Virus record (IMG/VR): IMGVR_UViG_3300027976_000041
Span: 1-60,274 of that record
Reading direction: 5' to 3' (one strand)
Source: a virus
Lineage: Duplodnaviria; Caudoviricetes
Length of the DNA stretch: 60,274 bases
The notes beneath the pieces are model-generated. The model was not told where the DNA came from. It worked only from the letters and a program-made list of their open reading frames with translations, and did no database searches. Of this stretch, positions 17,607 through 57,984 are shown in pieces (positions within the stretch are counted from its first letter, which is position 1; each line of letters opens with the position of its first letter). A program made the translations under genes and the position numbers.

Positions 17607-17613
17607 AGCTCTT

Positions 17614-18006
17614 CTAGCGCACGCGGGTGAGTGTAACACCCACTTCTAATGGGTTCTCTGTATTCTTAATTCTAAAGATAATTCCGATATACACTTTATT
17701 GTTATCGTAACTAGGGCGTACATTGACAGATAGAACATCGATCCTAGGCTCATAGTTATTTAGTACATTTGTGATGGCCTCGGTCATAGTTATAACAAAT
17801 AGATCGTCCATATTATCGAACATCAATTTTCTAATTGGTGTACCGATCTCAGAATGAAATAGACGCTCATAATTACCGATCATCACTAGACTCTTAACCG
17901 CAAACTTTATTGCTCGGTCGTCAATCCGGATATTTAGATCGCCAGAGTTCGGATTCGCCCCAAAGACTGCATCTATATCTGTGTATGTTCGTGTTATTCT
18001 TGGCAT
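17614..18006 (-). CDS. Baseplate wedge subunit gp25
   Basis: Y.DID..F..NP.SGD, ERLF..EIG, NYEPRI motifs. Confidence 0.92.
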   Translation of the reverse strand: MPRITRTYTDIDAVFGANPNSGDLNIRIDDRAIKFAVKSLVMIGNYERLFHSEIGTPIRKLMFDNMDDLFVITMTEAITNVLNNYEPRIDVLSVNVRPSYDNNKVYIGIIFRIKNTENPLEVGVTLTRVR

Positions 18007-35008: not shown

Positions 35009-35309
35009 TGAAGATCGTCATTTCATAACCAGCCAGAATGGGCGTGTATTTGAGATCAAACTCCGTCATCACGGGCTTCAGGATCCAGCCTAGCTGGCAG
35101 CCTGGGCAATCACCGGTCACATACCACACGGTAACATTTCCTGTATTCTCGTTGCGAATGGCGATGCCGCGGTCGTATGCGTCGCCGTAGAGCCGGAGGA
35201 ATAAATCGTTAGTAGGAAAGTCGGAACGTTCGGCCGACAGGGTTTTGCGCTTAGAGTCGTGCGCAAACATCTTTGAATTCCATTCGACGAGAGGGAGAAA
35301 TTTTGCCAT
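35001..35309 (-). CDS. Hypothetical early protein
   Basis: AAGGA SD and early promoter upstream. Confidence 0.65.
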   Translation of the reverse strand: MAKFLPLVEWNSKMFAHDSKRKTLSAERSDFPTNDLFLRLYGDAYDRGIAIRNENTGNVTVWYVTGDCPGCQLGWILKPVMTEFDLKYTPILAGYEMTIFND

Positions 35310-35330
35310 TTTGTTTCCTTATATGAGTTT

Positions 35331-35360
35331 ATTATAACACAAACAAGAATAAAAGTAAAC
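35331..35360 (-). promoter_or_regulatory. T4-type early promoter
   Basis: GTTTACTTTTATTCTTGTTTGTGTTATAAT. Confidence 0.85.
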
Positions 35361-35364
35361 TACA

Positions 35365-35622
35365 TTATTTCGGCCCCCAAAGTTCTATCTTAAAGTATAT
35401 TTTCTTTGTTTCAAAGCTTTTTAACTTTGTCATAAAATTGACTTTGATATCAAGGAGTTCCATATTATCCCTGTCTTGAATTAGTCGATTGAGAAACTCA
35501 ACTTCACCCTTGGATAATTCTGTAACCTCAAAATAAAATTGTGGGAACTTCTTGAGTTTCCACAATGCACGATTCAGCGATGGCAACGTGCCGTAAGCTA
35601 TTTCCCAGCAGATATCTTTCAT
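35365..35622 (-). CDS. Hypothetical protein
   Basis: ATGA-coupled to the epimerase. Confidence 0.55.
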   Translation of the reverse strand: MKDICWEIAYGTLPSLNRALWKLKKFPQFYFEVTELSKGEVEFLNRLIQDRDNMELLDIKVNFMTKLKSFETKKIYFKIELWGPK

Positions 35623-36473
35623 ACAGTCTCCATAATTGTCTTAATGTAGCCACGAACATTTCGTTTAGCCGACCACCCTAGACTTTGCGTCTTATAAGTG
35701 GAAAGGGTCGCTTCCATACGATTGCCGGCACGGTGCGCCATCATCTCAATTTCACCGCCAAACATTTTTGCTATATCAAGTACAGAATATGTTTCTTCAG
35801 AGCCGATACTATATCCATCACCGATGCCATTTTGTCCAACCAATATTAAGCCATCAACAATATCATCCACGTGGGTAAAGTTACGAAGCTGTGAACCCGG
35901 CGAAGTTATCGTCAGGGCTTTGCCATTTTTTGCTAGTCGAGCAAACTTTGCTATCAGCGTGGCATATTTGCCATCGGCGATCTCATTTTTCCCGTAGACA
36001 TTGTAGAAGTAGGTGATAGCATAATCAAGACCAAACCATATCCCATAATTCTTTACGAGCTCAGTGTTCTTTGCTTTCGTGAATGCATAGGGCGAACTGT
36101 CGGCACCGATATCACCAAATTTGGTAGAGGAACCTGCGTAGATAAGTTTGGCTTTTTTCGACCGAGCGAATTCAAGAACTTCAAAAGACCCTGTCGAATT
36201 AGATTCCCATACTTGCCGTATATCATCGAATGACTGTTCGACTCGAGGATATTCACCAAGATGGTAAATAGAGGTCGGCTTAAAATCAAGTTCAAAAATA
36301 TCGGCTGTATGCATATCATGATAGCTCACACCGGGTACGTGATTCGATCGAGAACCGGTACTATAATTATCAACTGATACCACGTTATGGCCAGTTTTCA
36401 CTAGTCGTTCACATAAATTACTACCAATAAAGCCTGCTCCGCCAGTTATTAGAATGTTCGTTCGTTCGTCCAT
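35619..36473 (-). CDS. NAD-dependent nucleotide-sugar epimerase/dehydratase (extended SDR)
   Basis: TGGAGFIGS, YAFTK (YxxxK), YFYNVYG, RNFTHVDD. Confidence 0.9.
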   Translation of the reverse strand: MDERTNILITGGAGFIGSNLCERLVKTGHNVVSVDNYSTGSRSNHVPGVSYHDMHTADIFELDFKPTSIYHLGEYPRVEQSFDDIRQVWESNSTGSFEVLEFARSKKAKLIYAGSSTKFGDIGADSSPYAFTKAKNTELVKNYGIWFGLDYAITYFYNVYGKNEIADGKYATLIAKFARLAKNGKALTITSPGSQLRNFTHVDDIVDGLILVGQNGIGDGYSIGSEETYSVLDIAKMFGGEIEMMAHRAGNRMEATLSTYKTQSLGWSAKRNVRGYIKTIMETV

Positions 36474-36490
36474 AATCGCCTAAAAATTAA

Positions 36491-36526
36491 ATTATAACAC
36501 CACTTCGGTAAAATAGAAATAAACTA
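36491..36526 (-). promoter_or_regulatory. Promoter: extended -10 plus upstream TAGTTTATTTCT box
   Basis: TGTTATAAT; same box and spacing as 39510-39545. Confidence 0.6.
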
Positions 36527-36590
36527 CCGTTCTTCATACATTCCAATCGCGGAAAACCGTTCTTTCAGTTCAACGAGTTCTAAGTCATGA

Positions 36591-37418
36591 TTATAGTTTC
36601 ACGTGTTGAGCTATCTCTCTTTCTAAAAGATTTGAATACCCACCACGAATGATCTTATTCACTCGAATTACTTCATCTAAAATGGTGAGTTTACAATCTG
36701 AAAAGTGAGAAAATGCTGCTGTATCTTTGAGGAAACAACTGCCTCCGGCTCCATACCGACCATCATTACCTGGAACCATTGTGTGACCGGGCGCAATTCG
36801 CGGGTCTGTCGTTACTGCTTCGCGAACGGTATTATAATCGGCGCCATACTTCGAACACAATGCTTCTATCTGATTGAAGAATAAAACCTTAGCCGTCAAA
36901 AATGAGTTCATCGTATACTTTACAAATGAGGCTTCAACAGCACTCATGTGGAAACGCGGCGCATCATTGTTACAGATTGACGCGTGGATGTATAACAGCT
37001 CCAGTTTCCTGGTCTGTTCAAGTTCACCACCGAATACATGCATAATTGGCCACTCGAAATCTCGTAATGCGTTACGTTCTGTTAAAAATTCTGGGTTATA
37101 GATAAAGTTCGTATAACGTACAGCTAATTTCTCAACGATATCGGGTACTACTGTGGATTTAAGAACCAGAAGAGTTTCCAAATATCTCAATTCAAACAAA
37201 ACCTTTTCAACAATAGATGCGTCAATTACACCATCACTCCCCATAGGAGTTGGAACACAAATAAAAATGGCGTCAAATTTCTCTTTGGTTTGAACCATAT
37301 CTGCGGTTGATGTTCCTAATAACGGGTCAGCTATTATTAAATTACAACCTTGAAACCCATGTGCTACAGCTCGTCCAACGAAGCCGTATCCAATTATTCC
37401 AATATTTGCTTTTTTCAT
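36591..37418 (-). CDS. UDP-glucose/GDP-mannose 6-dehydrogenase family (no C-terminal UDP-binding domain)
   Basis: GYGFVG, ICVPTP, KSTV.P, NPEFL, K...NSFL, GG.C..KD. Confidence 0.9.
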   Translation of the reverse strand: MKKANIGIIGYGFVGRAVAHGFQGCNLIIADPLLGTSTADMVQTKEKFDAIFICVPTPMGSDGVIDASIVEKVLFELRYLETLLVLKSTVVPDIVEKLAVRYTNFIYNPEFLTERNALRDFEWPIMHVFGGELEQTRKLELLYIHASICNNDAPRFHMSAVEASFVKYTMNSFLTAKVLFFNQIEALCSKYGADYNTVREAVTTDPRIAPGHTMVPGNDGRYGAGGSCFLKDTAAFSHFSDCKLTILDEVIRVNKIIRGGYSNLLEREIAQHVKL

Positions 37419-37464
37419 GTTGTTCCTAAAAATTCTGACAGGGGTTCGTTAACTGACTTTACCT

Positions 37465-38034
37465 TCACTCGCATGAATATGTGTCGAACTGACGTTTCAA
37501 GTCAGTTGGGGCAATCATATCCCAGTTGTTCGTGTGCGACTGTTCTTTGAATATCAAATGGTTTGTTGGCAACACTGCGAGACGATCATTTTTAAGTTTG
37601 ACGAAACTGAACTCTTTGGCTTGCTCTGGGTACAAAGAAAAACTATCACTCACCGGGGCAACTGTAAATAGGTAAGTCCCCGGTATTGTACGTTTATTGC
37701 CGTGCACGTCAATGCGTGCAGCGATTTCCAAATCCGACAAATATTCATATCGAATCGTCGAAAATCTTTCGCCGTAGCAGTTCCAAGCCTGCGCATCTTT
37801 CGGAGTCCACAAAGGTTCAGGAGTTTTTGAGAATGCCAAGGCGTGTACGGGGACATTGCGGTAGACCGCGCCGGATTTGAGCAGCACCGTGCAACCCCAG
37901 ACGCGACCTCGCATCGAAACCAGACCGTACCAAACAGCCTCTATAAATCCAATAGGTTGTGTGTGCGTGAACGTGGTATCGACAAAAATATATTGATGTT
38001 TAGGCAGCTCGCCTACAAGGGTGTAATCTGACAT
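37465..38034 (-). CDS. Hypothetical protein flanked by direct repeats
   Basis: 189-aa ORF; GAVYRNVP.HA and WNCY motifs. Confidence 0.7.
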   Translation of the reverse strand: MSDYTLVGELPKHQYIFVDTTFTHTQPIGFIEAVWYGLVSMRGRVWGCTVLLKSGAVYRNVPVHALAFSKTPEPLWTPKDAQAWNCYGERFSTIRYEYLSDLEIAARIDVHGNKRTIPGTYLFTVAPVSDSFSLYPEQAKEFSFVKLKNDRLAVLPTNHLIFKEQSHTNNWDMIAPTDLKRQFDTYSCE

Positions 38035-38042
38035 TGTTGTTT

Positions 38043-38273
38043 CTAAAAAAATTCTAACAGGGGTTCGTTAACCGCACTGTCGATAGACCATTTTAATTTT
38101 GTCACGGAATGCTTCTTCATAGCCTTCAGGTGTGGTGTACCAAGCAAATCTGCGAACTTTGCCAGATCAGTCTTATTACGAATCCGCACCATAATAAAGC
38201 GACCTTCGCCGCGTGACATTCGTTCAACTTCCGGAGACGGTTTTGTAAAATCTTCGGGTTCGTTATATAGCAT
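38043..38273 (-). CDS. Small protein associated with the glycosyltransferase
   Basis: V.I....DL.KFA.L.G pattern, similar to the neighbouring ORF. Confidence 0.6.
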   Translation of the reverse strand: MLYNEPEDFTKPSPEVERMSRGEGRFIMVRIRNKTDLAKFADLLGTPHLKAMKKHSVTKLKWSIDSAVNEPLLEFF

Positions 38274-38275
38274 AT

Positions 38276-38542
38276 TTAGTCCTCTTCAATCCACACAAAT
38301 AATGCATTTGAACCACGTTCCCCAGGGTCCAGGCGGGGAAACCATATTGACTTGGCGCTTCTGATACCGTTCTCTAGGATACTCTCGATCCCTGTCAGTT
38401 CGCAAAACTTTTTCATATCTGCTTCTGTTTGCATGCAAACTTCTACAACATAGGGCGCCTCAAATGCTTCTTGTTCATATGGGGGAAACCCAAGATAACC
38501 AATACGGTTTATTGTTTTGGCTCCAAAAAATTCTGTCGTCAT
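38276..38542 (-). CDS. Small protein associated with the glycosyltransferase
   Basis: GFPPYEQE...V.......D..KF..L.G....KSIWFP; ATGA-coupled to the GT. Confidence 0.65.
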   Translation of the reverse strand: MTTEFFGAKTINRIGYLGFPPYEQEAFEAPYVVEVCMQTEADMKKFCELTGIESILENGIRSAKSIWFPRLDPGERGSNALFVWIEED

Positions 38543-39477
38543 TCTAACTCCATTCGCACTTCGGTCATTGTTGTATTCGTATAAGATCCACAAATATTCT
38601 TTGGGTTATTCAACTTAACCAACTTAAGTTTAGTATCATATTCATCGGGCCAGGTGCAACCATCTTTCAAGATAAGCCTATTATTCTTTTGAAAATGCGA
38701 ATAATCTACCTGGTGATGGTGTCGCCCCCATTTAGTAGTTAGCTCAACACAATCTGGATGCGCGCGATGCAGAGATGCAGCAAATGAATATCGGTTATCG
38801 AAATCCTTCTTATCACCAATCTTATAGATAGCCTCAGTATTTCCACCCTTCATCTGATTGGTTGCAGCTTTACCAACAGCGAATGAATTCAATAAAATTG
38901 TGCAATAGCCTTTTTTTAAGAGCTGAAGGGATAAATCTGTATCTTCATTGAATGGTGCGGGTTTGTTATCCCATTCAAGAACTCGCCAACGTTCAGAAAT
39001 GGAGTTATCCAAGAGGATACACGAGTAGATTCTCGTGTTATAATAAGCGGGCTCCTTTTTAACGAATGATGGGCAGAAGAAGTGATAGTTCAGACCGCTC
39101 ATTTTTACATTAGTAAAGCGATCCGTATAATCTTCTAATACTCGAAATGGTACAGATGATCTAACACGCAATTTAGTATTTTGGTGGATACGATATAGAT
39201 ATCTAAAGTTATCGTCGCACACCCAATGCCGCTTGTGCCCTTCGGCTATAGAATGTTCCCAGATCCAATTGCGAGCGGGGATGCCACCAAGCCCAAGATT
39301 TTTGAATGGTAGTACCAGAATCTTCTTTGGATTGATGACTGAGGCATATTTGTCGTATTCTTGTTCTTCGATTACGATTCTATAATCCATGTCGTTTTCT
39401 TCGAATGTTTTTGACGTCATTCGAGATTCCCATCTGCCCTTTGAGAGGATGTAGATAGGGTAGCGGGTTTGCTTCAT
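38539..39477 (-). CDS. GT-A fold glycosyltransferase, TET-associated (TAGT)/GREB1-like
   Basis: YPIYI.SKGR, E.QEY..Y, G.IPARNW.W.HS...G..RHW..DDN, TRIYSC.L, NEDTDLSL, MKGGNT, GR.HH.VDY. Confidence 0.8.
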   Translation of the reverse strand: MKQTRYPIYILSKGRWESRMTSKTFEENDMDYRIVIEEQEYDKYASVINPKKILVLPFKNLGLGGIPARNWIWEHSIAEGHKRHWVCDDNFRYLYRIHQNTKLRVRSSVPFRVLEDYTDRFTNVKMSGLNYHFFCPSFVKKEPAYYNTRIYSCILLDNSISERWRVLEWDNKPAPFNEDTDLSLQLLKKGYCTILLNSFAVGKAATNQMKGGNTEAIYKIGDKKDFDNRYSFAASLHRAHPDCVELTTKWGRHHHQVDYSHFQKNNRLILKDGCTWPDEYDTKLKLVKLNNPKNICGSYTNTTMTEVRMELE

Positions 39478-39509
39478 TTAATCTTTCGCGTTGTTCATTG
39501 TATAGTTTA

Positions 39510-39545
39510 ATTATAACTTATCTTTGGGAAACCAGAAATAAACTA
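39510..39545 (-). promoter_or_regulatory. Promoter: TATAAT plus upstream TAGTTTATTTCT box
   Basis: Same box and spacing as 36491-36526. Confidence 0.6.
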
Positions 39546-40337
39546 TACCATAGCCGTGAGTTCTGCCAAACTAATGATTTTGATACCGAGATCACGGGCT
39601 TTCTGAGTTTTTCCTGAGGTTGAATGAATATCCTTACACACAAGAATCGTGATAGCCTTGGAGAAGTTTTCTACGACCTCACCACCCATCGACTGCACTT
39701 TGGCAATCATCTCAGGCGATAATCTAACACCTGTTGCGATAATCACTTCATTTATGAGAGCGCCTTTGCCGAGAACGACTGCTTTCGGTTGAACGAATTT
39801 AACTTTCGATTTGATGCGTTGATATATTGTGTTAGCAGAACTTGCATTGCAATGAAGTAATTCCGCCGATTTTACATCATAGCCTTGGAGCTCACAGTAT
39901 TCCTCAACCGAAACCCGTCCAGATAATACTTCCTCAACCGTGTACTTATCAAATACTACTTTGAGCTTTCGTTCGCCGAGCCCACGGCCAAATAAACCAA
40001 GCGCCGCGAACAAGCGTTGAGGCGTGGTTGATTCAAGAATCTTTTTCATCATGATCCCAGCTTTACGACCGTTTTCGCCGATAACTTCTTCTAGAACTTC
40101 TGGGTTGTTGATAATACCCACCGCGCTAAAGAAACCATGTTCAATCAGTTTTGCGACAGAACCTTCGCCAATCCAATCAATCTCCATCTTCGAGAAGAAA
40201 TATTGAAGCACCTTGGCGCGCTGTTCATCGGCGCCCTCGGCTGAAGTAGATACAAGATCAACACCCGTGGCATTCCATTCTACACCAGCTCTGCCTCCTG
40301 GGAATTGCCCGTAAAACCAATCATCATATGTTTGCAT
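39543..40337 (-). CDS. ligA: NAD-dependent DNA ligase, C-terminal part (HhH and BRCT)
   Basis: WN.TGVD, IGEGSV.KL, FGRGLGERK HhH; BRCT I.ATG.R...GG.V...FSK....LV......SGK..KA..LGI.II. Confidence 0.85.
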   Translation of the reverse strand: MQTYDDWFYGQFPGGRAGVEWNATGVDLVSTSAEGADEQRAKVLQYFFSKMEIDWIGEGSVAKLIEHGFFSAVGIINNPEVLEEVIGENGRKAGIMMKKILESTTPQRLFAALGLFGRGLGERKLKVVFDKYTVEEVLSGRVSVEEYCELQGYDVKSAELLHCNASSANTIYQRIKSKVKFVQPKAVVLGKGALINEVIIATGVRLSPEMIAKVQSMGGEVVENFSKAITILVCKDIHSTSGKTQKARDLGIKIISLAELTAMV

Positions 40338-40359: not shown

Positions 40360-40367
40360 TATAAATA
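40360..40367 (+). promoter_or_regulatory. Late promoter TATAAATA for the endonuclease
   Basis: Exact consensus about 90 nt upstream of the ATG at 40459. Confidence 0.7.
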
Positions 40368-40458: not shown

Positions 40459-41253
40459 ATGCGCAACAAAAATATTTATCAATTCAACTATGTCTACCGT
40501 ATTACCAACATAGTTACTAGTATGCATTATTACGGTTGTAGAAGCTGTGATATTGATCCAAAACTAGACCTTGGTATCAAATACTTTGGTTCACTTACGG
40601 GTGAAGTCGGTAAAGCCTTTAGAGCCGACCAAAAAGCAAATCCGTCAAAATTCAAGTATAAGATCGTTAGAATATTCACCACACGTGAATCTGCACTAAC
40701 ACTCGAAATAATGCTCCATGCTATGTTTGATGTTGGCCGCAACCAGAAATTCTACAATATAGCAAAACAGACATCAACTTGGTATGATAGAACTGGTGTG
40801 CCAGTTTCTCCAGAAGTTTTAGCAAAAAGGACTATCACGCTCGCAAGAAATAGAGCGGCCCCTGGTTACATACACCCGCTTAGTGGTAAGAAGCGTTCGG
40901 CCATTCATATAGCGAGTAGCATTACCGCTAGGGCGATAATTCGGGCTAAACCAGATTACATAAATCCTCAAAAGGGTAAAAAACACACGAAAGAACATAA
41001 TGCTAGTATTGCAGCCGGTATGGCAAAAGCTAACGCCGTTCCTGGGTATATAGATAAACGTACTGGCACAGTATGGTCAGAGGAAACTAAAATTAAGGCC
41101 GCAAAAATTCGAGCAAGAAGAAGGGCTGAACCGGATTATATCAGGCCCGTATATCGGACGAATGTTTTCGTCCGTAAAATGAAACGCTTTTATTGCAGGG
41201 GGCCTGGTTTACCAAACCCGATAATGGTTGGTATAACATCTCCCGCTCGGTGA
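40459..41253 (+). CDS. GIY-YIG (Seg-like) homing endonuclease inserted antisense in ligA
   Basis: YVYRITN...HYYG.RS...YFGS, A..LE..LH..FDV..N..FYN; about 30-aa basic repeats; AGGAG SD. Confidence 0.85.
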   Translation: MRNKNIYQFNYVYRITNIVTSMHYYGCRSCDIDPKLDLGIKYFGSLTGEVGKAFRADQKANPSKFKYKIVRIFTTRESALTLEIMLHAMFDVGRNQKFYNIAKQTSTWYDRTGVPVSPEVLAKRTITLARNRAAPGYIHPLSGKKRSAIHIASSITARAIIRAKPDYINPQKGKKHTKEHNASIAAGMAKANAVPGYIDKRTGTVWSEETKIKAAKIRARRRAEPDYIRPVYRTNVFVRKMKRFYCRGPGLPNPIMVGITSPAR

Positions 41254-42278
41254 ATCTTAACAATTGAACCCGGTTGAATTTTGTTATCATAAATGAATCG
41301 TGCATTAAAACCAGAGCATCTGGAGATAGTAACCCCGCCAATATACACTGGCTCGATAAGTATGACTGGTTTGTAAAAACTGTCTTTTGACACGGACCAC
41401 TCGATTCCTATCACCTCTGTTTCTACGGAGCTATTCACCAGTTTAATTTTTACTGAGTAATTAGGATTTAAATCATCGGATGTAGCATTGAACTTTCGAT
41501 ATTCAATACTATCAACATCGACTACCACACCATCGAGTTCGTATTCTGAGTGCTCGATCATCTGTGCGATTACCATTTCAACATCTTTATAAGTAAAATG
41601 GCAATTCTGTAAGTATGTAACTGGTGTGGTGAAGTTATAGTGCTGCGATAGTATACGCATCTGTGCACTCTTATCCATTAGATTTTTGTAATTGGCGAAC
41701 ATCTCGAACGCCACGAATTTAAAATATTTGTAAAGTTCGCCTTGACCTTTAGTCGAGTTTAAGAATCCTGCGACGAAGTTACGGGCATTAGCATACTCGC
41801 GGTCGGCTTCGGCCAGAAGCGCGGGCCAATCCTTTTTAGCAATCACCAATTCGCCCCGGATAAAACCTGTAAACTTATCTCCAGTATGGGCGGGAAGGCC
41901 AACCATCTTAGATGTATGACGGATATTGGATGCGCCATAAACTCCATCGCCACGAGACCAGGAATTGATCAGGACGCCGTTTTTGTATTCCAGCAGGCAA
42001 GAATTGCCGTCGATTTTTTCGGTGAACAGATATTCACGAGCCTTTGGAAAGTTGTTTTTCCAAGCCGACCACTCTTTTTCATTGCGAATTTGATTCAAAC
42101 TGCCCATCACCATAGGCAATTTTTCCTTGCCTGTGCGTTCGTTTGAACCAATGTGCTTCAGAATCTCGGGGTTGGTTTTGGATAGAGCAAGTTCGAATGC
42201 GTCGAACTCAGTATCCGTCATGATGGGATCGCCCGCGAAGTAGGATTTCTTCGCGGCGAAATATTTGGAAACAGTCAT
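41190..42278 (-). CDS. ligA: NAD-dependent DNA ligase, N-terminal part (adenylation and OB domains)
   Basis: Y..G.PIMTD.EFD, MGSL, EKIDG, SRGDG, RGEL, ARNFVAG, ELDGVV, RAGDVIP. Confidence 0.92.
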   Translation of the reverse strand: MTVSKYFAAKKSYFAGDPIMTDTEFDAFELALSKTNPEILKHIGSNERTGKEKLPMVMGSLNQIRNEKEWSAWKNNFPKAREYLFTEKIDGNSCLLEYKNGVLINSWSRGDGVYGASNIRHTSKMVGLPAHTGDKFTGFIRGELVIAKKDWPALLAEADREYANARNFVAGFLNSTKGQGELYKYFKFVAFEMFANYKNLMDKSAQMRILSQHYNFTTPVTYLQNCHFTYKDVEMVIAQMIEHSEYELDGVVVDVDSIEYRKFNATSDDLNPNYSVKIKLVNSSVETEVIGIEWSVSKDSFYKPVILIEPVYIGGVTISRCSGFNARFIYDNKIQPGSIVKIHRAGDVIPTIIGFGKPGPLQ

Positions 42279-43202: not shown

Positions 43203-43409
43203 TTAGTTCCTAAAGTTAAGTTTGTAATCAATCATACAATCGACCCACGCGTTTTGGTAGATCAAAAGTTCTTTCCATGTGGGATGGTTCACATCCTCAT
43301 GCATAGTTGTAACTTCTTCTAAGATCGGCATAGACATAAAGAAGTTCATACTTACGTGAGCGATCTCGCCGTCGCCCAAAATTTCACGTATTTCGTCGGT
43401 TGTTCTCAT
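43203..43409 (-). CDS. Hypothetical protein
   Basis: ATGA-coupled to the upstream gene. Confidence 0.55.
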   Translation of the reverse strand: MRTTDEIREILGDGEIAHVSMNFFMSMPILEEVTTMHEDVNHPTWKELLIYQNAWVDCMIDYKLNFRN

Positions 43410-43849
43410 ATTTTAGGTGTAATGTGTCGGTGATTTATTCTACAATTGATGATGCCATTAAAATACTTATCTTGATTTTCCAAAACCTCAGAAAGCATCT
43501 GCTCTTTAGCTTCCCAATACGACATGCCGCCTTTGGTGCTGCAGAAAAACAAAATTTCTCGCGTGAATTTATCTTCGCCGAGTTCCTTAACAAGCTGAAC
43601 AAGCTTCTCGCTACTGCTCCAATATGTCGGCCAATCTGACTGCACTAAAGTTTTTGTTTTCTTTTTATATTTCGCGCCATTTTTTCTCTTCAAAGTTTTC
43701 ACGGACGTCTTCTTAAAAAACAAAAGTTTTTTTCCAAGATATGCCTTGCCATTTTCCAAACAAGTAATTTTGTAAATGAAACCTAAAGCGTTTTCGGGAA
43801 TAAGAGTTTCGTTAAATGGCGCATCATGGTATACCCACTCAGACATCAT
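43406..43849 (-). CDS. Short GIY-YIG-family nuclease
   Basis: GFIYKIT....K.YLGKK, SDW..YWSS, F.REIL, Y.E.K.Q, YFNG.I. Confidence 0.75.
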   Translation of the reverse strand: MMSEWVYHDAPFNETLIPENALGFIYKITCLENGKAYLGKKLLFFKKTSVKTLKRKNGAKYKKKTKTLVQSDWPTYWSSSEKLVQLVKELGEDKFTREILFFCSTKGGMSYWEAKEQMLSEVLENQDKYFNGIINCRINHRHITPKI

Positions 43850-45462: not shown

Positions 45463-46224
45463 ATGGCCAAGTCATATACTTATCATTACGCATACCGTAT
45501 CACAAACAAGGTAACCGGAATGCACTACTACGGTGCACGTAGTTGTAATATCGAACCAAAACTAGATCTCGGTTACATTTATCCCGGCTCACTCTCAAAT
45601 AAAGAGGGTGTTATATTCGTGGCCGATCAAAAAACTAATCCCCGAAACTATAGGTACAAGGTTGTTCAAATATTTGAAACTCGCATACTGGCAATATCAC
45701 GCGAAATAATCCTCCACGCCATGTTCAACGTGAAGTGCCATCCAAAGTTCCACAATAAGTCAAACCAAACATCCACCGGATGGGATACCACTGGTACGAC
45801 CATGCCAGAAGGAGCTACGTTGAAGCGACTTAGTACCCGAGCGAATAATGATGCACTCCTAACATTAGCTAAAAGGGAAAAACGTGCCGCTGACCGAACA
45901 GCGCGCCGCATTGCAAAGGCGGCCGGTGGATTCGTTCGCAAAAAGCAAACTCCAATATCTTCAGAAGCAAATGCCATCAAAAAGCAAAAAGAAAGATATA
46001 CACGGGCCATAAATGATGCACGCAGATCACCAGAAGATACAGCGACAAATTACGCAAAGAGACTTGCATCATGGGCTCAAACTATGGCTAATGGTTTCGA
46101 GCACCCGAATAAGGGAAGGAGCCCTTCGGCGGTCTCCGAAGCATCTCGCCTGGCCTCCAGAGATAGAAACCAAGCAGCCGGGAAGATTTACAATAAACCC
46201 GGGCCCAAGATTAATAGATCATAG
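45463..46224 (+). CDS. GIY-YIG (Seg-like) homing endonuclease, antisense between nrdA and nrdB
   Basis: YAYRITN..TGMHYYGARS..PKLDLG; paralog of 40459-41253. Confidence 0.85.
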   Translation: MAKSYTYHYAYRITNKVTGMHYYGARSCNIEPKLDLGYIYPGSLSNKEGVIFVADQKTNPRNYRYKVVQIFETRILAISREIILHAMFNVKCHPKFHNKSNQTSTGWDTTGTTMPEGATLKRLSTRANNDALLTLAKREKRAADRTARRIAKAAGGFVRKKQTPISSEANAIKKQKERYTRAINDARRSPEDTATNYAKRLASWAQTMANGFEHPNKGRSPSAVSEASRLASRDRNQAAGKIYNKPGPKINRS

Positions 46225-52046: not shown

Positions 52047-53549
52047 TTATTCCTCAAAATCTTCGGTAGAAACCGTATCTGATTCCACACCATCTATAAA
52101 TGTAGAAAGTTCTACTTTAAATCCCCAAAGATTTTGAACGTGTTGCAATACGGCTAATGTATCCTTTTCGTGTAATTCAGAACCATCCTGGGAAATATAA
52201 TGGAGTTCTAAACGCCGGGTTGAATTTAGATTGGCAGAATATACTTGAATATTAGGAGTAATTTTAGATCGATCATATCTATTAGCTAGAGTAGCTCTAA
52301 TCTCTTTATAACCCTTTTCGTCATGAATTTGTTCAACGACATACGCACGATCATTTAAATCGGCGATCTGAAACATTCTAAATTCCCGCATAACCTTAGG
52401 CCCGAGGAACTGTCGTATACCCGATTCGTCGTTGTAGTTTGCAACAATATCTCGAATTACTCCAAAGTGATTGCCTTTGCCCGCAATGGCGGGAAACCAT
52501 TGGCGATCTTCTTCATCTGGTTTAGTACAGATTCGTTCTATATCACGCAGAATTGCCAGACCGAGTGCATAGGGATTAAAATTTGGGCCAACCTGCTCAA
52601 AGGTACCTTGACGCACAACAGCGGACTGTACATCTGCGATCTCAAGCATAGAGCCTTCAGAGATTAATCCCTTTTCATACAGCCGACCCAAAATATACAT
52701 GTGCGTATATGTGGCCATACCTTCATTAAGAACCTTTGTTTTCGACTGCCCATTAAAGTATGTTGCTATGGTGCGAACGATTCTAATTATCTCGCGTTTC
52801 CATGGGGCTAGTGATGGGGAGTGCTTTTCGATAAATTTTAGAATATTTTCTTCTGTATCGATAGGGAATTTCTTGTGTTCAGTTTCTATAACCTTTGGAG
52901 GTTCTGGTAATGTACTATCCATTACAATATCAACCTGTGATAAAAGATATTCTTCTCGAGCTAGACGATGAGCTGTATCTTCGGCTAGATTAAATACTTT
53001 CTTTTTTGTTTTATCAACCCCCTGTTGCTCTAGAGCGTGAGCTGAATCCAATATAGATTCCACTTCGCCTAGGCCATATTTTTCTTCGCAATTAGAGATA
53101 AATTTCTTAGCGAATGTAAGATAATCTATTATAGAATCCGCCATACCCAATTCTTTAAATAGATAGTTATGTTTAAAGAAATGATTGTGGCCGAATGCGG
53201 CGTGCGCTATAACTAGTGCTTGTATAGTTGCAGAGTTGCCCTCCATAATAAAATTGATACATGGGTTTGTGTTAATTACAATCTCATATGCCAGTCCGCT
53301 ATGGCCCTTCCTATAGTTATATTCATCTCTAGCAAATGATTTTCCAAAGCTCCAATGATTATATCCCGTGGTAAGGCCGACTCGACTATACGCATCTAGC
53401 ATCTGTTCGCTTGTAGTGATATAGAATGTGTTTGGATATATATCTAATCCCATTTCACTGATGGCGATTTTTTCACACTCAACTGCTATTTTAGAAATAG
53501 TATCGGCATTCCACTCGTTATCGACAAAAAGTAATTTAGATTTTTTCAT
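52047..53549 (-). CDS. spoVR: SpoVR/YcgB family protein
   Basis: HWSFGK, GLAYEIVIN.NPCI, AHAAFGHNHFFK, TKV.NEG.ATY.H, NPYALG. Confidence 0.95.
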   Translation of the reverse strand: MKKSKLLFVDNEWNADTISKIAVECEKIAISEMGLDIYPNTFYITTSEQMLDAYSRVGLTTGYNHWSFGKSFARDEYNYRKGHSGLAYEIVINTNPCINFIMEGNSATIQALVIAHAAFGHNHFFKHNYLFKELGMADSIIDYLTFAKKFISNCEEKYGLGEVESILDSAHALEQQGVDKTKKKVFNLAEDTAHRLAREEYLLSQVDIVMDSTLPEPPKVIETEHKKFPIDTEENILKFIEKHSPSLAPWKREIIRIVRTIATYFNGQSKTKVLNEGMATYTHMYILGRLYEKGLISEGSMLEIADVQSAVVRQGTFEQVGPNFNPYALGLAILRDIERICTKPDEEDRQWFPAIAGKGNHFGVIRDIVANYNDESGIRQFLGPKVMREFRMFQIADLNDRAYVVEQIHDEKGYKEIRATLANRYDRSKITPNIQVYSANLNSTRRLELHYISQDGSELHEKDTLAVLQHVQNLWGFKVELSTFIDGVESDTVSTEDFEE

Positions 53550-54823
53550 GGTGTATCTCTAGAAAAAATTTCCCGAAACACGGCATAAATTCCTGATGGG
53601 AATATCAATTTTTTCAAGACGATATTTTCGTGCGCAGTTCGCAATTTTTCATATAAGCCCCACAAACTTGTTTTTCTGATATCGGACATATTAAATGAAC
53701 TAACATGTTCTGAAGTTAATTCGGTATAGATAAAATACTGTAGTTTTGGCAATAAATCTTCTAAATATTTTTGTACGGCTGGATTATCACTTTCGAAATT
53801 ATCGCCGTCACTAGAAGAAGCACAATAAATATTCCATTCTTCTATGGGATATCTAGCCTTGATGATTTCTGTTACTAGTTTGAATGCTGTTGATACTATA
53901 GTGCCACCCGATTCTTTGCCGTAAAAGAATTCATCTTCATCGCACTCTTTCGCCTCAGTCGTGTGTCTGATAAAAACCACGTCTATATTTTTATATTTAG
54001 AAGATAAGAACATATGCAGAAGCATATAGAATCTTTTAGCGAGATCCTTTTCATATTCTCCGACAGAGCCAGATACATCCATCACACAAAACATCACCGC
54101 CTGGTTCATGGGTTTAGTTTGTATTTCAAACTTTTTATATTTTAGATCAATTGGATCAAGAAAAGTTATAGCATTGGCTTTTCGTTTTAATCGGGCGATT
54201 TCTTCAATAATAGAATCACGCTCTTCATCATCTAGTTCTTCAAATAATAGAATCTTTTCAAGCTCTAAGATTTTTCGAAGCTTTGGAAATTTCAGCGCGA
54301 TACGTCGCCCCAATGAATTTATCATTGACTGTTCTAAATCTAGTAGAGACGGGTTTCCAGAGGAAGAATATCCAGCTCGATTTCGTACAGTAGAGTTTAC
54401 TTGCTTTGATGATTTTTTGATAAAGTCCGGTAGTTCAAGCCCATCAAATAATATTTCGGCGTATTCTTCTTTGGATAAAACGAATTCGAATTCGTCTTCG
54501 CCGGAACCAGAATCAGATGCATCATTACCTTTGCCTTTATTCTTTTCGGGCTTTTTAATGAGATCATCGACAACGAATTCTTCATTTCCCGGAAGAACAT
54601 ACTTGCCTTTAACAGTATTCGGATCATGACGAAAATGCGGCTCTGAAATCCCATCGATCGGGATTTTAACTTTCTGTTGACCAGTATTAGTAATAGAACG
54701 CTCTGATACTGTATCCCGGATAGCTTTCTTAATCGATTCTCGTGCTCTTCTAATAAATCGGCCCCGATTGCCCAGTGACTTACCGCCCGGATTAGTTCTT
54801 CTATCAACAATAGTATGTGACAT
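53546..54823 (-). CDS. yeaH: YeaH/YhbH (DUF444) VWA-like protein
   Basis: DRR.N..GKS..NR.RF, PGN.EF, AVMFC.MDVSGS, FIRH, ESGGT, SDGDN. Confidence 0.95.
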   Translation of the reverse strand: MSHTIVDRRTNPGGKSLGNRGRFIRRARESIKKAIRDTVSERSITNTGQQKVKIPIDGISEPHFRHDPNTVKGKYVLPGNEEFVVDDLIKKPEKNKGKGNDASDSGSGEDEFEFVLSKEEYAEILFDGLELPDFIKKSSKQVNSTVRNRAGYSSSGNPSLLDLEQSMINSLGRRIALKFPKLRKILELEKILLFEELDDEERDSIIEEIARLKRKANAITFLDPIDLKYKKFEIQTKPMNQAVMFCVMDVSGSVGEYEKDLAKRFYMLLHMFLSSKYKNIDVVFIRHTTEAKECDEDEFFYGKESGGTIVSTAFKLVTEIIKARYPIEEWNIYCASSSDGDNFESDNPAVQKYLEDLLPKLQYFIYTELTSEHVSSFNMSDIRKTSLWGLYEKLRTAHENIVLKKLIFPSGIYAVFREIFSRDTP

Positions 54824-54824
54824 A

Positions 54825-55157
54825 TTAAACTGAGAAGGATGATCCACAGCTACATGTAGATGTAGCGCCGGGATTATTCGTGACGACAAATTGTGCGCCA
54901 GCCAGATTGTCATTATAATCTATAATAGATCCAACCAGATACTGATAGCTCATTGCGTCGATCAAGAGGGTTACACCGTTCGTGACCGTGGTCATATCGT
55001 CTTCCTCGATATCTTCGGCGAACGCGAATCCGTAGGAAAAGCCAGAACAGCCTCCACCCTGTACAAAAACGCGTAGCATAAGACCGGGCTTGCCGTCTTC
55101 GGCGAGTAACTCTGCAACCTTTACGGCCGCTGATTCGGTAAAAATTATTTCTGTCAT
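54825..55157 (-). CDS. erpA: A-type Fe-S carrier ErpA
   Basis: [47 protein letters not shown]. Confidence 0.92.
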
Positions 55158-55483
55158 ACTTTTTTGATGTGAAAACTTTCGCCGCAACCACACATTGTAT
55201 CGACGTTAGGATTGTCAAATTTGAACATCTGCTTGAGCCCTTCGGTGACGAAATCTATACGACTACCATCAAGATATTGTAGATTTATCTTATCGATCAA
55301 TACCGTGGCACCATATGCCTCAAATATATTATCTGTATCTGTTACATTGCCTGCTATTTCGAATGTGTGTGCCAAACCAGTACACCCAACCTTCTTGATA
55401 CCGATTCGCAATCCAATACCTGGCTGTTTCTCAAGTTGGTGGCGAATCTGTTTCGCGCAATTTTCAGTTAGTATGATTGCCAT
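55154..55483 (-). CDS. iscA: A-type Fe-S carrier IscA
   Basis: MAI.LTE, GLRIG.K..GCTG, FKF.NPN....CGCGESF. Confidence 0.92.
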
Positions 55484-56042
55484 GGGAAAGCCTTATTATA
55501 TTTATAATGTCAACAAGTTCTGGGCTCTGGAGTACTTCAGTGTGCCCATAGTTCAGAATTATTTCATTTGACTGTTTATATAGTTCTCGTTGACTTTCGA
55601 TGGTAATAACCCCATCGTTTTTTCCAAACCATAAGACATCAAAACCGTGGGTAGTAACAATATTAGTCCATGGGCATGCCGGAGGCATATGTCGCGGGCG
55701 ACTTGTCCACATTCCAGTTCTACTCAACATTATTAACCAGTGTGGTATCCGATTGAATGATGACCAGAAGCTAACGTATTTACTACCGCCCCAAGGTGTT
55801 CCAATAGAGATTCCGTGAGTTACAAGCTCTGGATTCCGTTTAGCCAAATGCCAGGCATAAAGACCGCCCATGCTGTGTCCAACAACGATGCACGGTTCGG
55901 TGATGTGCTTCTCCATCGCGATGAGATTATCTTCCGGCGATAATGTCATTTCCCAAGATAAACGAGTATTTGACATATGCGCACCGACCCAATTCCAGGA
56001 TATATTTGATGCATGTGCGCCATGAATCAATAGGATTTTCAT
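55464..56042 (-). CDS. Alpha/beta hydrolase
   Basis: LIHGA, VGHSMGG, GTPWGGS, NDGV, H.EVL. Confidence 0.88.
   Translation of the reverse strand: MKILLIHGAHASNISWNWVGAHMSNTRLSWEMTLSPEDNLIAMEKHITEPCIVVGHSMGGLYAWHLAKRNPELVTHGISIGTPWGGSKYVSFWSSFNRIPHWLIMLSRTGMWTSRPRHMPPACPWTNIVTTHGFDVLWFGKNDGVITIESQRELYKQSNEIILNYGHTEVLQSPELVDIINIIRLSHGNHTN
55499..55506 (-). promoter_or_regulatory. Late promoter TATAAATA upstream of iscA (inside the hydrolase 3' end)
   Basis: Exact consensus 15 nt upstream of the ATG. Confidence 0.65.
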
Positions 56043-56046
56043 AATA

Positions 56047-57984
56047 CTAACTCTTGGCGATACGAAGATACCATTCAACTAAACGCCGGACGGTTTTTTC
56101 AGTGTAACCTTTTTCAATCATCCGTTTCAGGAATTCAGCATGTTTCTCGCCATCGGCTTTTGAGGCTTTTGCGCTAAAAGATATAACCGGTAACATTTCG
56201 TCAGTCGCGCTGAACATCTTTTTCTCGATCACTTCGCGTAGCTTCTCATAGGAAGTCCATGCGGGATTCTTACCCTTATTCTGAGCACGGGATCGCATTA
56301 CAAAGTTTACGACCTCGGCTCTAAAATCTTTAGGATTAGAAATCTGGGCGGCCTTCTCTATTTTCTCAAGTTCCTTATTCAGGACTGCTCGATCAAACAT
56401 CTGGCCCGTGTCGGCATCTTTAAATTCGATATCCTGAACCCAGTGATCAGCGTAATCGATATATCGGTCAAACATATGCTGACCGAAGTCGGAGTACGAA
56501 TCTAAGTATGCTTTCTGAATTTCATGGCCGATATATTCTTTATACTTCTCGGTCATGTGTATCTTAACAATCTCCAGTAAAGAGGTTGCCTGATCTTCTG
56601 GAAATTGCTCCTGTTTAATTGCGCGTTCTAATACATACATTAAATGCACGGGATCACACGAAACTTCAGTGGGATCAAAATTGTATGTTTGTGACAGGAT
56701 TTTGAAGGCGAATCGAGTAGAGATGCCACGCATGCCCTCATCGACTCCAGCATTCTCTTTGTACTCTTGGAGAGTTTTGGCCTTAGGGTCTTTGTCCCGT
56801 AAATTCTCACCGTTATATACAGCCATCTTCGAAACCTTGGAAGAATTTTCGTGCTCCTTCAGACGGGACAATACAGAGAAGTCTGCTAGAAGTTCCATAG
56901 TCATCGGTGCGCATGGGGCAGTTTTCAGGGATGATTCGCCTATCATCTTCTTGTATACTTTAACCTCTTCTGTGGTCCGGAGGCAATATGGAACTTTAAC
57001 AATATAGATACGATCCAAGAAGGCTTCGTTATTCCGGTTTGAACGGAATGTGATCCATTCAGCCTCATTCGAGTGAGCCAAAATAATTCCGTTAAATGGA
57101 ATCGCGCCGAGCCCTTCTTCAGTTCCGTTATAGTTACCTTCTTGTGTAGCAGTTAAAAGCGGGTGAAGAACTTTGATCGGTGCTTTGAACATCTCGACGA
57201 ACTCAAGGATACCCTGATTCGACAAACACAAACCTCCGGAATAGGAATATGCATCTGTGTCGGATTGAGAAAATTCCTCAAGCATCCTGATGTTAACTTT
57301 TCCGCAGAGAGCAGAAATATCTTGATTATTATCATCACCAGGTTCAGTTTTGGAAATTGCTACTTGATTCAGCTTTGAAGGCCACATCTTCATAACAGAG
57401 AATTTAGAAAGATCGCCGTCACATTCCTTGAGACGTTTCAGAACCCATGGTGATGGAATCTGATTTAGATAACGTGTCGGAATATTATATTCGGCTTCAA
57501 TATGTTCCTTCAGAGCTGGGTCAGTGAATAGACCGAGGGGAGATTCGAAAACTGGGGAAACTTGGTTACCGAACTTCAGTACGTAGATCGGTTGTTTTTC
57601 CATCATGTTTTTTAGACATTCCGCAATGGAAGATTTTGCTGAACCCACTGGTCCAAGTAGATACAATACCTGTTTACGTTCTTCAAGCCCTTGTGCAGAG
57701 TGTCGGAAGTAACCAACGATTCGTTCAATTGTATCTTCCATACCGTAGAGATCCGCGAAGGGTTTATAACGGCTGATGGTTCGATTTTGAAAAATACGTG
57801 ATAGTGTATGATCCGTAGATGTATTAATTACCTCAGGTTCACCGAACGACTTTAACATTCGCTCGGCTGGAGAGGCATAAGTGTCTGGAGAGGTTTTACA
57901 TAGGTCCAAATATTCTTCAAGTGAAAATTCTTCACTGTTCTTTGATTTTGCAACGTCGGAATACAGAGAAAACAGTTTATTCAT
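56047..57984 (-). CDS. prkA: PrkA/YeaG AAA+ serine-kinase family protein
   Basis: LLGPVGSAKSS Walker A, EPGDDNNQDIS, GILEFVEMFKAP, AHSNE.EW, NEAFLDRI, PKDFR.EVV. Confidence 0.96.
   Translation of the reverse strand: MNKLFSLYSDVAKSKNSEEFSLEEYLDLCKTSPDTYASPAERMLKSFGEPEVINTSTDHTLSRIFQNRTISRYKPFADLYGMEDTIERIVGYFRHSAQGLEERKQVLYLLGPVGSAKSSIAECLKNMMEKQPIYVLKFGNQVSPVFESPLGLFTDPALKEHIEAEYNIPTRYLNQIPSPWVLKRLKECDGDLSKFSVMKMWPSKLNQVAISKTEPGDDNNQDISALCGKVNIRMLEEFSQSDTDAYSYSGGLCLSNQGILEFVEMFKAPIKVLHPLLTATQEGNYNGTEEGLGAIPFNGIILAHSNEAEWITFRSNRNNEAFLDRIYIVKVPYCLRTTEEVKVYKKMIGESSLKTAPCAPMTMELLADFSVLSRLKEHENSSKVSKMAVYNGENLRDKDPKAKTLQEYKENAGVDEGMRGISTRFAFKILSQTYNFDPTEVSCDPVHLMYVLERAIKQEQFPEDQATSLLEIVKIHMTEKYKEYIGHEIQKAYLDSYSDFGQHMFDRYIDYADHWVQDIEFKDADTGQMFDRAVLNKELEKIEKAAQISNPKDFRAEVVNFVMRSRAQNKGKNPAWTSYEKLREVIEKKMFSATDEMLPVISFSAKASKADGEKHAEFLKRMIEKGYTEKTVRRLVEWYLRIAKS

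Follow-up and report, generated by a model that had tools for sequence, protein, structure and literature searches.

We analyze a gene cluster with a predicted role in the synthesis and transfer of nucleotide sugars in an uncultured virus, IMG/VR record IMGVR_UViG_3300027976_000041. The stretch examined (hereafter, the window) is the whole of this record, 60,274 bases with a CheckV completeness of ~ 28%, and PHROG and Pfam scans assign it to the T4-like myovirus type. The cluster consists of six co-oriented genes on the minus strand (35619–39477), which in order of transcription encode a glycosyltransferase of the TAGT family, open reading frames (ORFs) of 105 aa, 76 aa, and 189 aa, a nucleotide-sugar dehydrogenase, and a short-chain dehydrogenase/reductase (SDR). 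An earlier annotation made from the sequence alone (the original prediction) had read the region as a probable DNA sugar-hypermodification cluster with five members. All five, namely the glycosyltransferase, the two small ORFs, the dehydrogenase, and the SDR, exist at that place and on that strand; the gene for the 189-aa protein had been overlooked. Judged from sequence, the three enzymes belong to their proposed families with intact catalytic motifs, and the module is found repeatedly among T4-like phages, in the position that holds the DNA-modification genes of T-even phages.

Related loci were collected through the dehydrogenase. A search of IMG/VR with its single sequence returned one distant locus, and the single TAGT protein returned no related locus, so that an alignment was needed as the query. 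The alignment of short dehydrogenases found 585 relatives, of which the best 80 loci were examined.

A TAGT glycosyltransferase with a detached N-terminal domain

The first gene of the cluster (38539–39477, minus strand) encodes a GT-A glycosyltransferase of 312 aa. It matches the TAGT family PF20691 with E 5.4e-36 (124.9 bits against a cut-off of 27.5), residues 6–212 covering profile positions 1–205 of 205, and phrog_842 with E 1.1e-38. Four of its motifs are invariant in 17 homologues: DDN (D88-D89-N90), NEDxD (N177-E178-D179-x-D181), GGN, and HH. We infer that DDN and NEDxD are the catalytic motifs, by likeness to the R...DDD...EDY/F pattern given in the accessible part of a preprint on phage DNA glycosylation (bioRxiv 10.1101/2023.12.21.572611). 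According to the available portions of two papers, PF20691 includes the beta-glucosyl-HMC-alpha-glucosyltransferase of T2/T6 (HMC, hydroxymethylcytosine; PMC13216743, PMC13390438).

The window enzyme is a catalytic domain only, without the ~ 100-aa N-terminal domain of its homologues in cultured phages. In Aeromonas phage 65, Tenacibaculum phage PTm1, Vibrio phage 1.076.O, Pectobacterium phage POP12, and Paraglaciecola virus GD1, the protein is 384–471 aa long and the PF20691 match sets in at residue 103–131, compared with residue 6 in the window; Aeromonas phage Aeh1 also has the fused form. On sequence comparison, the two small ORFs that follow the TAGT gene are detached copies of this N-terminal domain of ~ 90 aa. 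Copy 1, listed at 38276–38593 (105 aa), likely spans 38276–38542 (88 aa), as an in-frame ATG at 38542 overlaps the TAGT stop codon in an ATGA. Its own stop is separated by 2 nt from the start of copy 2 (38043–38273, 76 aa); both lie on the minus strand.

Several searches connect the small ORFs with the N-terminus of the longer enzymes. By blastp, copy 1 matches the N-terminus of the POP12 TAGT (E 9e-07, POP12 residues 32–87) and that of the phage 65 TAGT (E 1e-03, around a KSIWFP stretch). An exhaustive search for relatives of copy 1 gave 25 representatives, all of them stand-alone proteins of 56–118 aa whose matches begin at query residues 19–52. The hidden Markov model (HMM) of this family also matches the N-termini of fused TAGTs, as well as the counterparts of copy 2 in loci L012, L014, and L015. 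When an N-domain profile built from these representatives was run on the 5793 ORFs of all loci, the matches with E < 1e-3 comprised only small ORFs adjoining a TAGT gene, the N-termini of long TAGTs, and the 76-aa ORF of the window (E 7.4e-07). The similarity that the original prediction saw between the two ORFs is thus real at the profile level and is not visible to BLASTP, which produces no alignment between copy 1 and copy 2; its reading of the pair as two independent small partners gives way to that of two copies of one TAGT domain.

The domain follows one branch of the family closely. It is present in all 23 loci that hold a TAGT of the window's clade (20 stand-alone, 3 fused) and in none of the 5 loci with a T-even-like TAGT; copy 2 is found by tblastn in 4 of the 80 loci (L012, L014, L015, L033). 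Within the window's clade, a tree of 32 TAGTs implies at least two changes between the fused and the detached state. This pattern of fusion and fission is our single reason for supposing that the small proteins work with the TAGT. As a side observation, the fused TAGT gene of POP12 is followed directly by an ORF of 59 aa (L010:6849-7028) that matches the N-domain profile (E 1.6e-04), and POP12 may hold both a fused and a free copy.

Database searches with the small ORFs yielded nothing credible in Pfam (to E 5), NCBIfam, or PHROGs, and a profile search of PDB with the N-domain found no relative (best E 0.44). A word-based search aimed at longer, fused forms found a single protein, of 211 aa and without a Pfam domain. 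Leads from a protein atlas in the context of the N-domain (viral unnamed clusters, two clusters containing ParB_N, and one TAGT cluster, with TM 0.44–0.50) were set aside, as they rest on a model with pLDDT 0.43. The two copies differ in isoelectric point, 4.5 for the acidic copy 1 and 9.1 for the basic copy 2. In an AlphaFold2 (AF2) model of copy 1 alone (pLDDT 70.9), there is one short helix and almost no regular structure, as expected from such a model for a piece that would fold against a partner.

A two-domain dehydrogenase and an exchangeable SDR

The dehydrogenase gene (36591–37418, minus strand) encodes a UGD-family (UDP-glucose dehydrogenase) NDP-sugar 6-dehydrogenase of 275 aa, made up of an NAD-binding domain (PF03721, E 1.2e-12) and a central domain with the catalytic Cys (PF00984, E 6.4e-18). 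Its best PDB match is a UDP-glucose 6-dehydrogenase (3vtf, E 1.4e-21), to whose GGSCFPKD its GGSCFLKD aligns, and C228, K167, and N171 are invariant in an alignment of 24 sequences. The TIGR03026 score is 132.7 bits, under the cut-off of 189.8. The family named in the original prediction is borne out, in a two-domain form that does without the UDP-binding C-terminal domain (PF03720). By sequence, this short form is no accident of the contig and marks a large phage family lacking the UDP-binding domain: we find 2009 homologues, and the best 120 are all 268–299 aa long and 49–69% identical. PF03720 has no match in any of five records (the window; G001, which is 100% complete; G002; G005; and the complete phage C48C1), and it matches in 13 of 14 control genomes. 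The main reason for calling the enzyme a UDP-glucose 6-dehydrogenase is that the two best-identified types of partner SDR in related loci, described below, consume UDP-glucuronate (UDP-GlcA); together with these partners, the best PDB and NCBIfam matches make UDP-glucose its probable substrate.

The SDR gene (35619–36473, minus strand) lies behind a 117-nt spacer (36474–36590), in which an extended -10-like TGTTATAAT occurs ~ 20 nt upstream of the ATG, a matter of consensus resemblance only. It encodes a compact, GalE-like extended SDR of 284 aa (PF01370, E 1.3e-40) with the N-terminal TGGAGFIGS (GxxGxxG) and with YAFTK (YxxxK). The PDB matches of the protein are weak and mixed, led by 6vlo (4.2e-24) and human UXS1, a UDP-xylose synthase (UXS; 1e-23), and followed by GalE-type enzymes. 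In a HMMER alignment to human UXS1, the positions that we take to be the catalytic residues read S-S-T in the window SDR and T-S-E in UXS1, with YAFTK opposite YDEGK. The protein accordingly fails the UXS pattern, having neither T-S-E nor Y-D-E-G-K, and shares 25% of its residues with the UXS-like SDR of locus L015; the T-D-E motif of dehydratases is also absent. S-S-T does fit the GalE-type S-x-T, in a protein whose own PDB matches are mixed and no better than E 4e-24. Its nearest reference is a GalE-like SDR (L040c, 31%, compared with 22–26% for six others including UXS-like and UGAE-like proteins), and the best PDB match of that reference is the UDP-glucose 4-epimerase of Thermotoga (E 4.7e-49). 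From these comparisons, the window SDR is probably a 4-epimerase acting on the product of the dehydrogenase or on the precursor of that product. It also keeps GSQxRxF and RxG[DN] stretches, which presumably bind the nucleotide in GalE-type enzymes.

SDRs occur in 57 of the 80 loci, with 59 genes in all: 34 resemble that of L038, 7 are of the window type, 5 are UDP-xylose synthases, 5 are of the short L055 type, 4 are GalE-like, and 4 are others. The L038 type matches UDP-GlcA 4-epimerases (5u4q, E 8.3e-79; 6zl6, E 3.5e-48; MoeE5). The UDP-xylose synthases, in L012–L015 and L033, match human UXS1 with E 9.5e-105 and keep ASTSEVYGD and CYDEGKR. The loci whose TAGT is closest to that of the window (L012 and L015, 65–69%) use a xylose synthase, and the window uses a different SDR, behind a promoter-like spacer of its own. 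At the level of sequence, the SDR partner has been exchanged among relatives (xylose synthase, GlcA 4-epimerase-like, GalE-like), a pattern consistent with selection acting on which glycan is made. Because UXS and UDP-GlcA 4-epimerase-like partners occur in related loci, a uronic acid or a pentose derived from it is the right chemistry for the module. A phage-made donor of this kind, as originally proposed, is well supported by the conserved GGSCFLKD and by the UDP-GlcA-using SDRs of the relatives. As a separate observation, a longer sugar pathway is suggested at one locus (L040:3099-7807), where DUF366 and three distinct SDR genes precede the short dehydrogenase.

Recurrence at the T-even DNA-modification slot

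Within the examined stretch, 48 of the 80 loci contain at least one DNA-modification marker. A TAGT is found in 28 loci (of the window's clade in 23), a homologue of the alpha-glucosyltransferase (alpha-GT, PF11440) in 11, a thymidylate synthase (TS) homologue in 16, and a C5-methylase-like gene in 22. The remaining 32 have no marker, and many of those stretches end early. UvsX is encoded in 48 of the 80 loci and DNA polymerase in 22, and the modules sit between DNA polymerase and UvsX/gp41 or gp45/gp44. As the order in phage RB27 is pol-imm-42-TAGT-uvsX-40-41, the environmental modules occupy the T-even DNA-modification slot.

The clearest gene order is that of L038, which runs DUF1599, cytidylyltransferase-like, TS homologue, dCMP deaminase, uracil-DNA glycosylase-like, alpha-GT (E 1.4e-54), SDR, short dehydrogenase, C5-methylase-like, UvsX. 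Its TS homologue has Asp in place of the dUMP-specifying Asn of canonical ThyA, the dCMP-hydroxymethylase pattern, and its sequence RSNDVVFGYKNDYAWQ aligns with RSNDVVFGFRNDYAWQ of RB27 gp42, with RSNDVVFG(F/Y)(R/K)NDYAWQ as the common stretch. A cluster of the L038 type predicts DNA with hexuronosyl-hydroxymethylcytosine. Such clusters (L038:2372-8993) recur in about ten other loci, among them L025, L034, L036, L039, L052, and L064. A variant slot is seen in L089 (3366-7822), L073, and L074, where the short dehydrogenase has as neighbors a phosphomannomutase, an asparagine-synthase-like protein, and a TS homologue that is divergent and of the dCMP type, and the stretch has no SDR or glycosyltransferase. 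A protein of ~ 310 aa that recurs in 31 of the 80 loci was considered as a hydroxylase and rejected, being a gp61-type primase (phrog_9765, E 7e-52).

Between the window and G001, the TAGTs are 68% and the dehydrogenases 56% identical, compared with 24–46% for core proteins, and the module looks either laterally mobile or unusually constrained.

Proposed function and comparison with known systems

The evidence tips us modestly toward a module for phage DNA glycosylation that produces its own donor from UDP-glucuronate, with enzyme activities, donor, and acceptor all predicted from homology and gene context. In the proposed scheme, the two-domain dehydrogenase would oxidize UDP-glucose to UDP-glucuronate, and the GalE-like SDR would turn UDP-glucuronate, or its precursor, into the donor that is used, likeliest a 4-epimer such as UDP-galacturonate. 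The TAGT-family enzyme, acting together with its detached N-terminal domain in two copies, would then move the sugar onto a hydroxylated base of the phage DNA.

The T2/T6 TAGT is the nearest familiar enzyme. It shares with the window protein the Pfam family (above the gathering score), a GT-A DxD-type motif, the T4-like replication setting, and, in related loci, the slot between pol and uvsX. It differs in that the window clade is separate (support 99/99), with an obligate N-domain of ~ 90 aa, fused or detached; in that the window has no gene 42 or alpha- or beta-glucosyltransferase nearby; and in that the donor enzymes of the window are those for UDP-GlcA derivatives, not UDP-glucose. The single enzymes depart from their cellular counterparts as well. 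Of the three domains of cellular UDP-glucose 6-dehydrogenases, the phage enzyme has the NAD-binding one and the central one, with the catalytic Cys, and lacks the third. The SDR has the extended-SDR signature and YxxxK of cellular UXS1 and GalE-type enzymes, and is short and at most 31% identical to the references compared.

Three systems described in the literature bear on the scheme. In the available part of the preprint cited above (bioRxiv 10.1101/2023.12.21.572611), a phage GT-A enzyme and a partner epimerase gave hexuronic-acid-modified 5-hydroxymethylcytosine in E. coli. Like its subclass II clusters, the window pairs a GT-A enzyme with an SDR-type epimerase, here within 4 kb and co-oriented. 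Those clusters adjoin a C5-methyltransferase and 5mYOX, neither of which is in the window, whereas the window adds a detached N-domain to its glycosyltransferase and a UDP-glucose dehydrogenase of its own; in the accessible preprint text, the word "dehydrogenase" is confined to the name given to a HAD enzyme.

Bacillus phage SP-15 offers a second parallel. Its DNA bears phosphoglucuronolactone, and its cluster for 5-dihydroxypentyl-uracil includes a UDP-glucose dehydrogenase with glycosyltransferases, as described in the portion of PMC5977210 available to us; this dehydrogenase is a tblastn match of the window enzyme at 28.3% identity. In contrast to the window, SP-15 is not T4-like, its glycosyltransferases are of other families, and the glucuronolactone is linked through a phosphodiester to 5-dihydroxypentyl-uracil (PMC5977210). 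Thirdly, the T4-like phages RB69, DLP3, and Shewanella phage Thanatos carry pentoses on 5-hydroxycytosine, according to the accessible parts of PMC13326640 and PMC12838424. They likewise make their own non-glucose donor for cytosine, and the nearest relatives of the window module encode a UDP-xylose synthase, which would give a pentose donor. They do so, as these parts describe it, with a ThyA-homologue 5hodCMP synthase, GT-B transferases, and a kinase/pyrophosphorylase route that starts from ribulose-5-P or xylose-1-P; the window contains none of these.

Beyond the papers cited, a literature search that left most subscription journals outside its reach found nothing on a UGD-UXS or UGD-epimerase route tied to phage DNA. 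New here are an N-domain that is obligate in one TAGT clade and can be detached, the family of minimal dehydrogenases, the exchangeable SDR, and a module for which no known acceptor-making enzyme was found.

The acceptor and alternative explanations

A number of results weigh against DNA as the acceptor. PF00303, PF12851, and PF00145 have no match in the window, which is ~ 28% complete. For PF00303 and PF12851, this agrees with the original remark that no TET or hydroxymethylase is visible there; the PF12851 negative is weak and unvalidated, because that profile matched in no control genome and in none of five other contigs. A TS homologue is found in 0 of the 23 loci with the window's TAGT clade, compared with 5 of the 5 loci with a T-even-like TAGT. 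PF00303 is likewise absent from all nine contigs that hold the clade (G001–G004 and G006–G010, 14–100% complete, one at 100% and one at 86%), and PF12851 and PF00145 from all four of G001–G004. A Pfam scan of G001, covering 125 of 174 ORFs of at least 100 aa, revealed no oxygenase or methylase. Since the window is ~ 28% of a genome whose core proteins are 24–46% identical to those of G001, such relatives tell little about the rest of that genome.

The enzymes themselves add to these points. The tree of 32 TAGTs, in which RB27 has a long branch (4.08), places the window within the N-domain clade and separates it, at 99/99 support, from RB27 and the TS-associated clade; the window does not group with RB27/T6-type enzymes. 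The literature accessible to our search contained no characterized member of the window's clade. A tblastn search with the window TAGT finds 25 phage records, none of them T-even, compared with 628 for the T-even-like TAGT of L055. In Vibrio phage 1.076.O, the homologue sits between portal and head-morphogenesis genes. The N-domain is acidic, is modeled as largely unstructured on its own, and gives no pointer to DNA binding. Lastly, the dehydrogenase lacks PF03720 and ends ~ 20 residues past its central domain.

Candidates for a hidden acceptor-making enzyme were sought among relatives. The G001 scan yielded a ThyX-like protein, two MazG-like proteins (one encoded 1 kb upstream of the TAGT gene), NT5C, and a dCMP deaminase. 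The ThyX-like protein was rejected as a hidden hydroxymethylase, as it matches phrog_85 with 2e-90, keeps the ThyX motif, and has nothing unusual. The TS homologues of phage 65, POP12, and GD1 are all of the ThyA type, as judged from Asn or a strong ThyA score, and none was found in Vibrio phage 1.076.O. PTm1, whose TAGT is fused, encodes a second TS homologue (NC_049340.1; L109:1444-2121) with RSNN and with Asp at the ThyA N177 position. This pattern matches D169N, which the available part of PMC13326640 gives as the signature of 5hodCMP synthases.

A serious rival, which we nevertheless think unlikely, keeps the donor route and changes the acceptor: the N-domain clade would glycosylate something other than DNA, either a protein of the phage or the host (e.g., one of the virion or of replication) or some other polymer, with the N-domain as the piece that recognizes or docks the acceptor. 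The absence of the TS homologue, Tet_JBP, and C5-methylase from the contigs and loci listed above counts in its favor, as do the distinctness of the clade from the DNA-acting T-even TAGT, the head-module position in Vibrio phage 1.076.O, and the acidity of copy 1. Eukaryotic GREB1, a relative through its TAGT domain, has been reported to glycosylate a protein and belongs on the same side. DNA is favored by the position of the module, in the gene 42/TAGT slot of T-even phages, and by its company, since the same dehydrogenase and SDR families occur in clusters with a gp42-like enzyme and a homologue of the T4 alpha-GT. Moreover, the characterized TAGT members named in the accessible parts of PMC13216743, PMC13390438, and bioRxiv 10.1101/2023.12.21.572611 all act on DNA. 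The late-promoter motif TATAAATA is absent from the minus strand between 30729 and 51093, and its lack in the cluster argues weakly against glycosylation of a virion protein. The original claim of DNA as the target is therefore upheld in part: TAGT family, T-even slot, and gp42-like or alpha-GT neighbors support it by association only, and the separate clade and the failure to find an acceptor-making enzyme detract from it.

A bolder form of the DNA-glycosylation proposal, which we regard as doubtful, would accommodate these absences. N-domain TAGTs would form a separate DNA-glycosylation system that has none of the known routes to a hydroxylated pyrimidine (ThyA-type, TET/JBP, or C5-methylase); either an unrecognized enzyme would make the acceptor, or the N-domain would admit a new kind of acceptor. 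Such a system would install xylose or a hexuronate, derived by way of the minimal two-domain UDP-glucose dehydrogenase, in widespread environmental T4-like phages.

We find it very unlikely that the dehydrogenase and SDR are auxiliary metabolic genes, serving the nucleotide-sugar or envelope metabolism of the host beside an unrelated TAGT. Phage C48C1 could be read in this way, with an SDR and a short dehydrogenase between a primase and a repair gene and no TAGT anywhere in its genome, and so could the 32 loci without a marker, many of which are cut short. Yet the genes of the window are co-oriented, and the whole run including the TAGT takes up less than 4 kb. Elsewhere, a TAGT (28/80) or an alpha-GT homologue (11/80) stands beside the pair, which stays in the replication/modification slot. 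The TAGT and the dehydrogenase, at 68% and 56% identity to G001, are far more conserved than the core, and this suggests that they travel and are selected together.

The idea that the truncated dehydrogenase oxidizes glucose already attached to DNA, and for this reason lost its UDP-binding domain, would suit the family-wide loss of PF03720 (all of the best 120 homologues being short) and the lack of a separate PF03720 gene in five records, two of them complete genomes, but it is barely credible beside partners that are UDP-sugar enzymes needing free UDP-glucuronate (the UXS and UDP-GlcA 4-epimerase-like proteins) and a window SDR that keeps the two stretches we assume to bind the nucleotide.

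If the module does glycosylate DNA with a UDP-glucuronate-derived sugar, many uncultured T4-like phages would carry xylosyl or hexuronosyl DNA, the short dehydrogenase having turned up in at least 585 IMG/VR stretches. Restriction, CRISPR, and glycosylase defenses might then be evaded in ways that have not been studied, and the sequencing of native DNA could suffer, as the available part of PMC12838424 reports for Thanatos. Objects of interest in their own right are the minimal UDP-sugar dehydrogenase, the swappable SDR "cassette" that would set the glycan, and the accessory domain tied to one TAGT clade. The acceptor pathway of this clade is a well-posed question that can be approached through the cultured phages with the fused form (65, Aeh1, PTm1, and POP12).

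Remaining genes and genomic setting

Two further ORFs lie in or next to the cluster. The 189-aa protein (37465–38034, minus strand) matches phrog_3704 (E 3.6e-16), a family labeled "PurM" or "ferredoxin" in cyanophages. It has matches in 52 phage records, the best in Pseudanabaena phage Pam2 (48.7%), where the gene is not beside sugar genes, and in none of the 80 related loci. Its AF2 model (pLDDT 92.2, pTM 0.88) is all-beta, with two SH3-like barrels. The best structural matches in PDB are distant (Foldseek E 3.7e-03, TM 0.26; VIA Z 5.7, root-mean-square deviation 4.4 over 66 residues). We reject both labels for this all-beta protein, whose nearest structures are Tudor, BAH, chromo, and KOW barrels, and we give it no family name because Z values of at most 5.7 are too low. 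The gene is probably an insertion outside the module. The 85-aa ORF on the other side (35365–35622, minus strand) begins within the last 4 nt of the SDR gene. It has no match in Pfam, PHROG, or NCBIfam and occurs in none of the 80 loci; its membership in the module is doubtful.

Upstream of the TAGT gene, at 39542–39569 on the minus strand, lies a weak sigma-70-like promoter candidate, TTGGCA-16-TATAGT with TG. A scan with the sigma-70-like consensus gave 31 sites in the region against 18.6 expected, which is weak evidence. TATAAATA occurs 11 times in the window against 6.55 expected, a difference that is not significant.

The window encodes homologues of the baseplate proteins gp5, 6, 25, 48, 53, and 54 and of gp2, gp3, gp32, gp59, and gp33, together with RNA ligase, NrdA/NrdB, primase, and several homing endonucleases. 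Compared with cultured phages, the gp6 homologue reaches no more than 35% identity, the nearest being Methylophilales phage Melnitz, cyanophages, and a Pelagibacter phage, and we therefore place the virus in an uncultured lineage of the environmental T4-like group. A megablast search with 35300–39600 against 50,697 phage records gave no match. The cluster does lie among replication genes, as had been stated, with a split NAD-dependent ligase upstream, RNA ligase and gp33-, gp59-, and gp32-like genes downstream, and NrdAB and primase nearby.

Away from the cluster, three adjoining genes (52047–57984) encode PrkA (E 1.9e-157), a DUF444/YeaH-like protein (E 2.1e-142), and a SpoVR/YcgB-like protein (E 6.6e-138). 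This trio is a bacterial stress-response operon, which phages do not usually carry, and homologues of all three genes are missing from G001. That complete genome, of 192 kb, has a radical-SAM gene adjoining an ABC transporter with a C39 peptidase domain, and it also has a GH5 cellulase, a homologue of Acb3 (an inhibitor of CBASS, the cyclic-oligonucleotide-based antiphage signaling system), and an NAD-salvage set.

The DNA ligase is encoded in two ORFs, with the adenylation and OB part at 41190–42278 and the C-terminal BRCT part at 39543–40337. Between the two parts, on the strand opposite to the ligase, is a gene for a GIY-YIG-type homing endonuclease (40459–41253), preceded by a TATAAATA motif at 40360. 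An Rfam scan matched no family in the window, so we do not attribute the split to a group I intron. Three further homing-endonuclease genes lie at 16764–17639, 43406–43849, and 45463–46224; one of them is in the baseplate block, one is SegE-like, and one is on the opposite strand between nrdB and nrdA.

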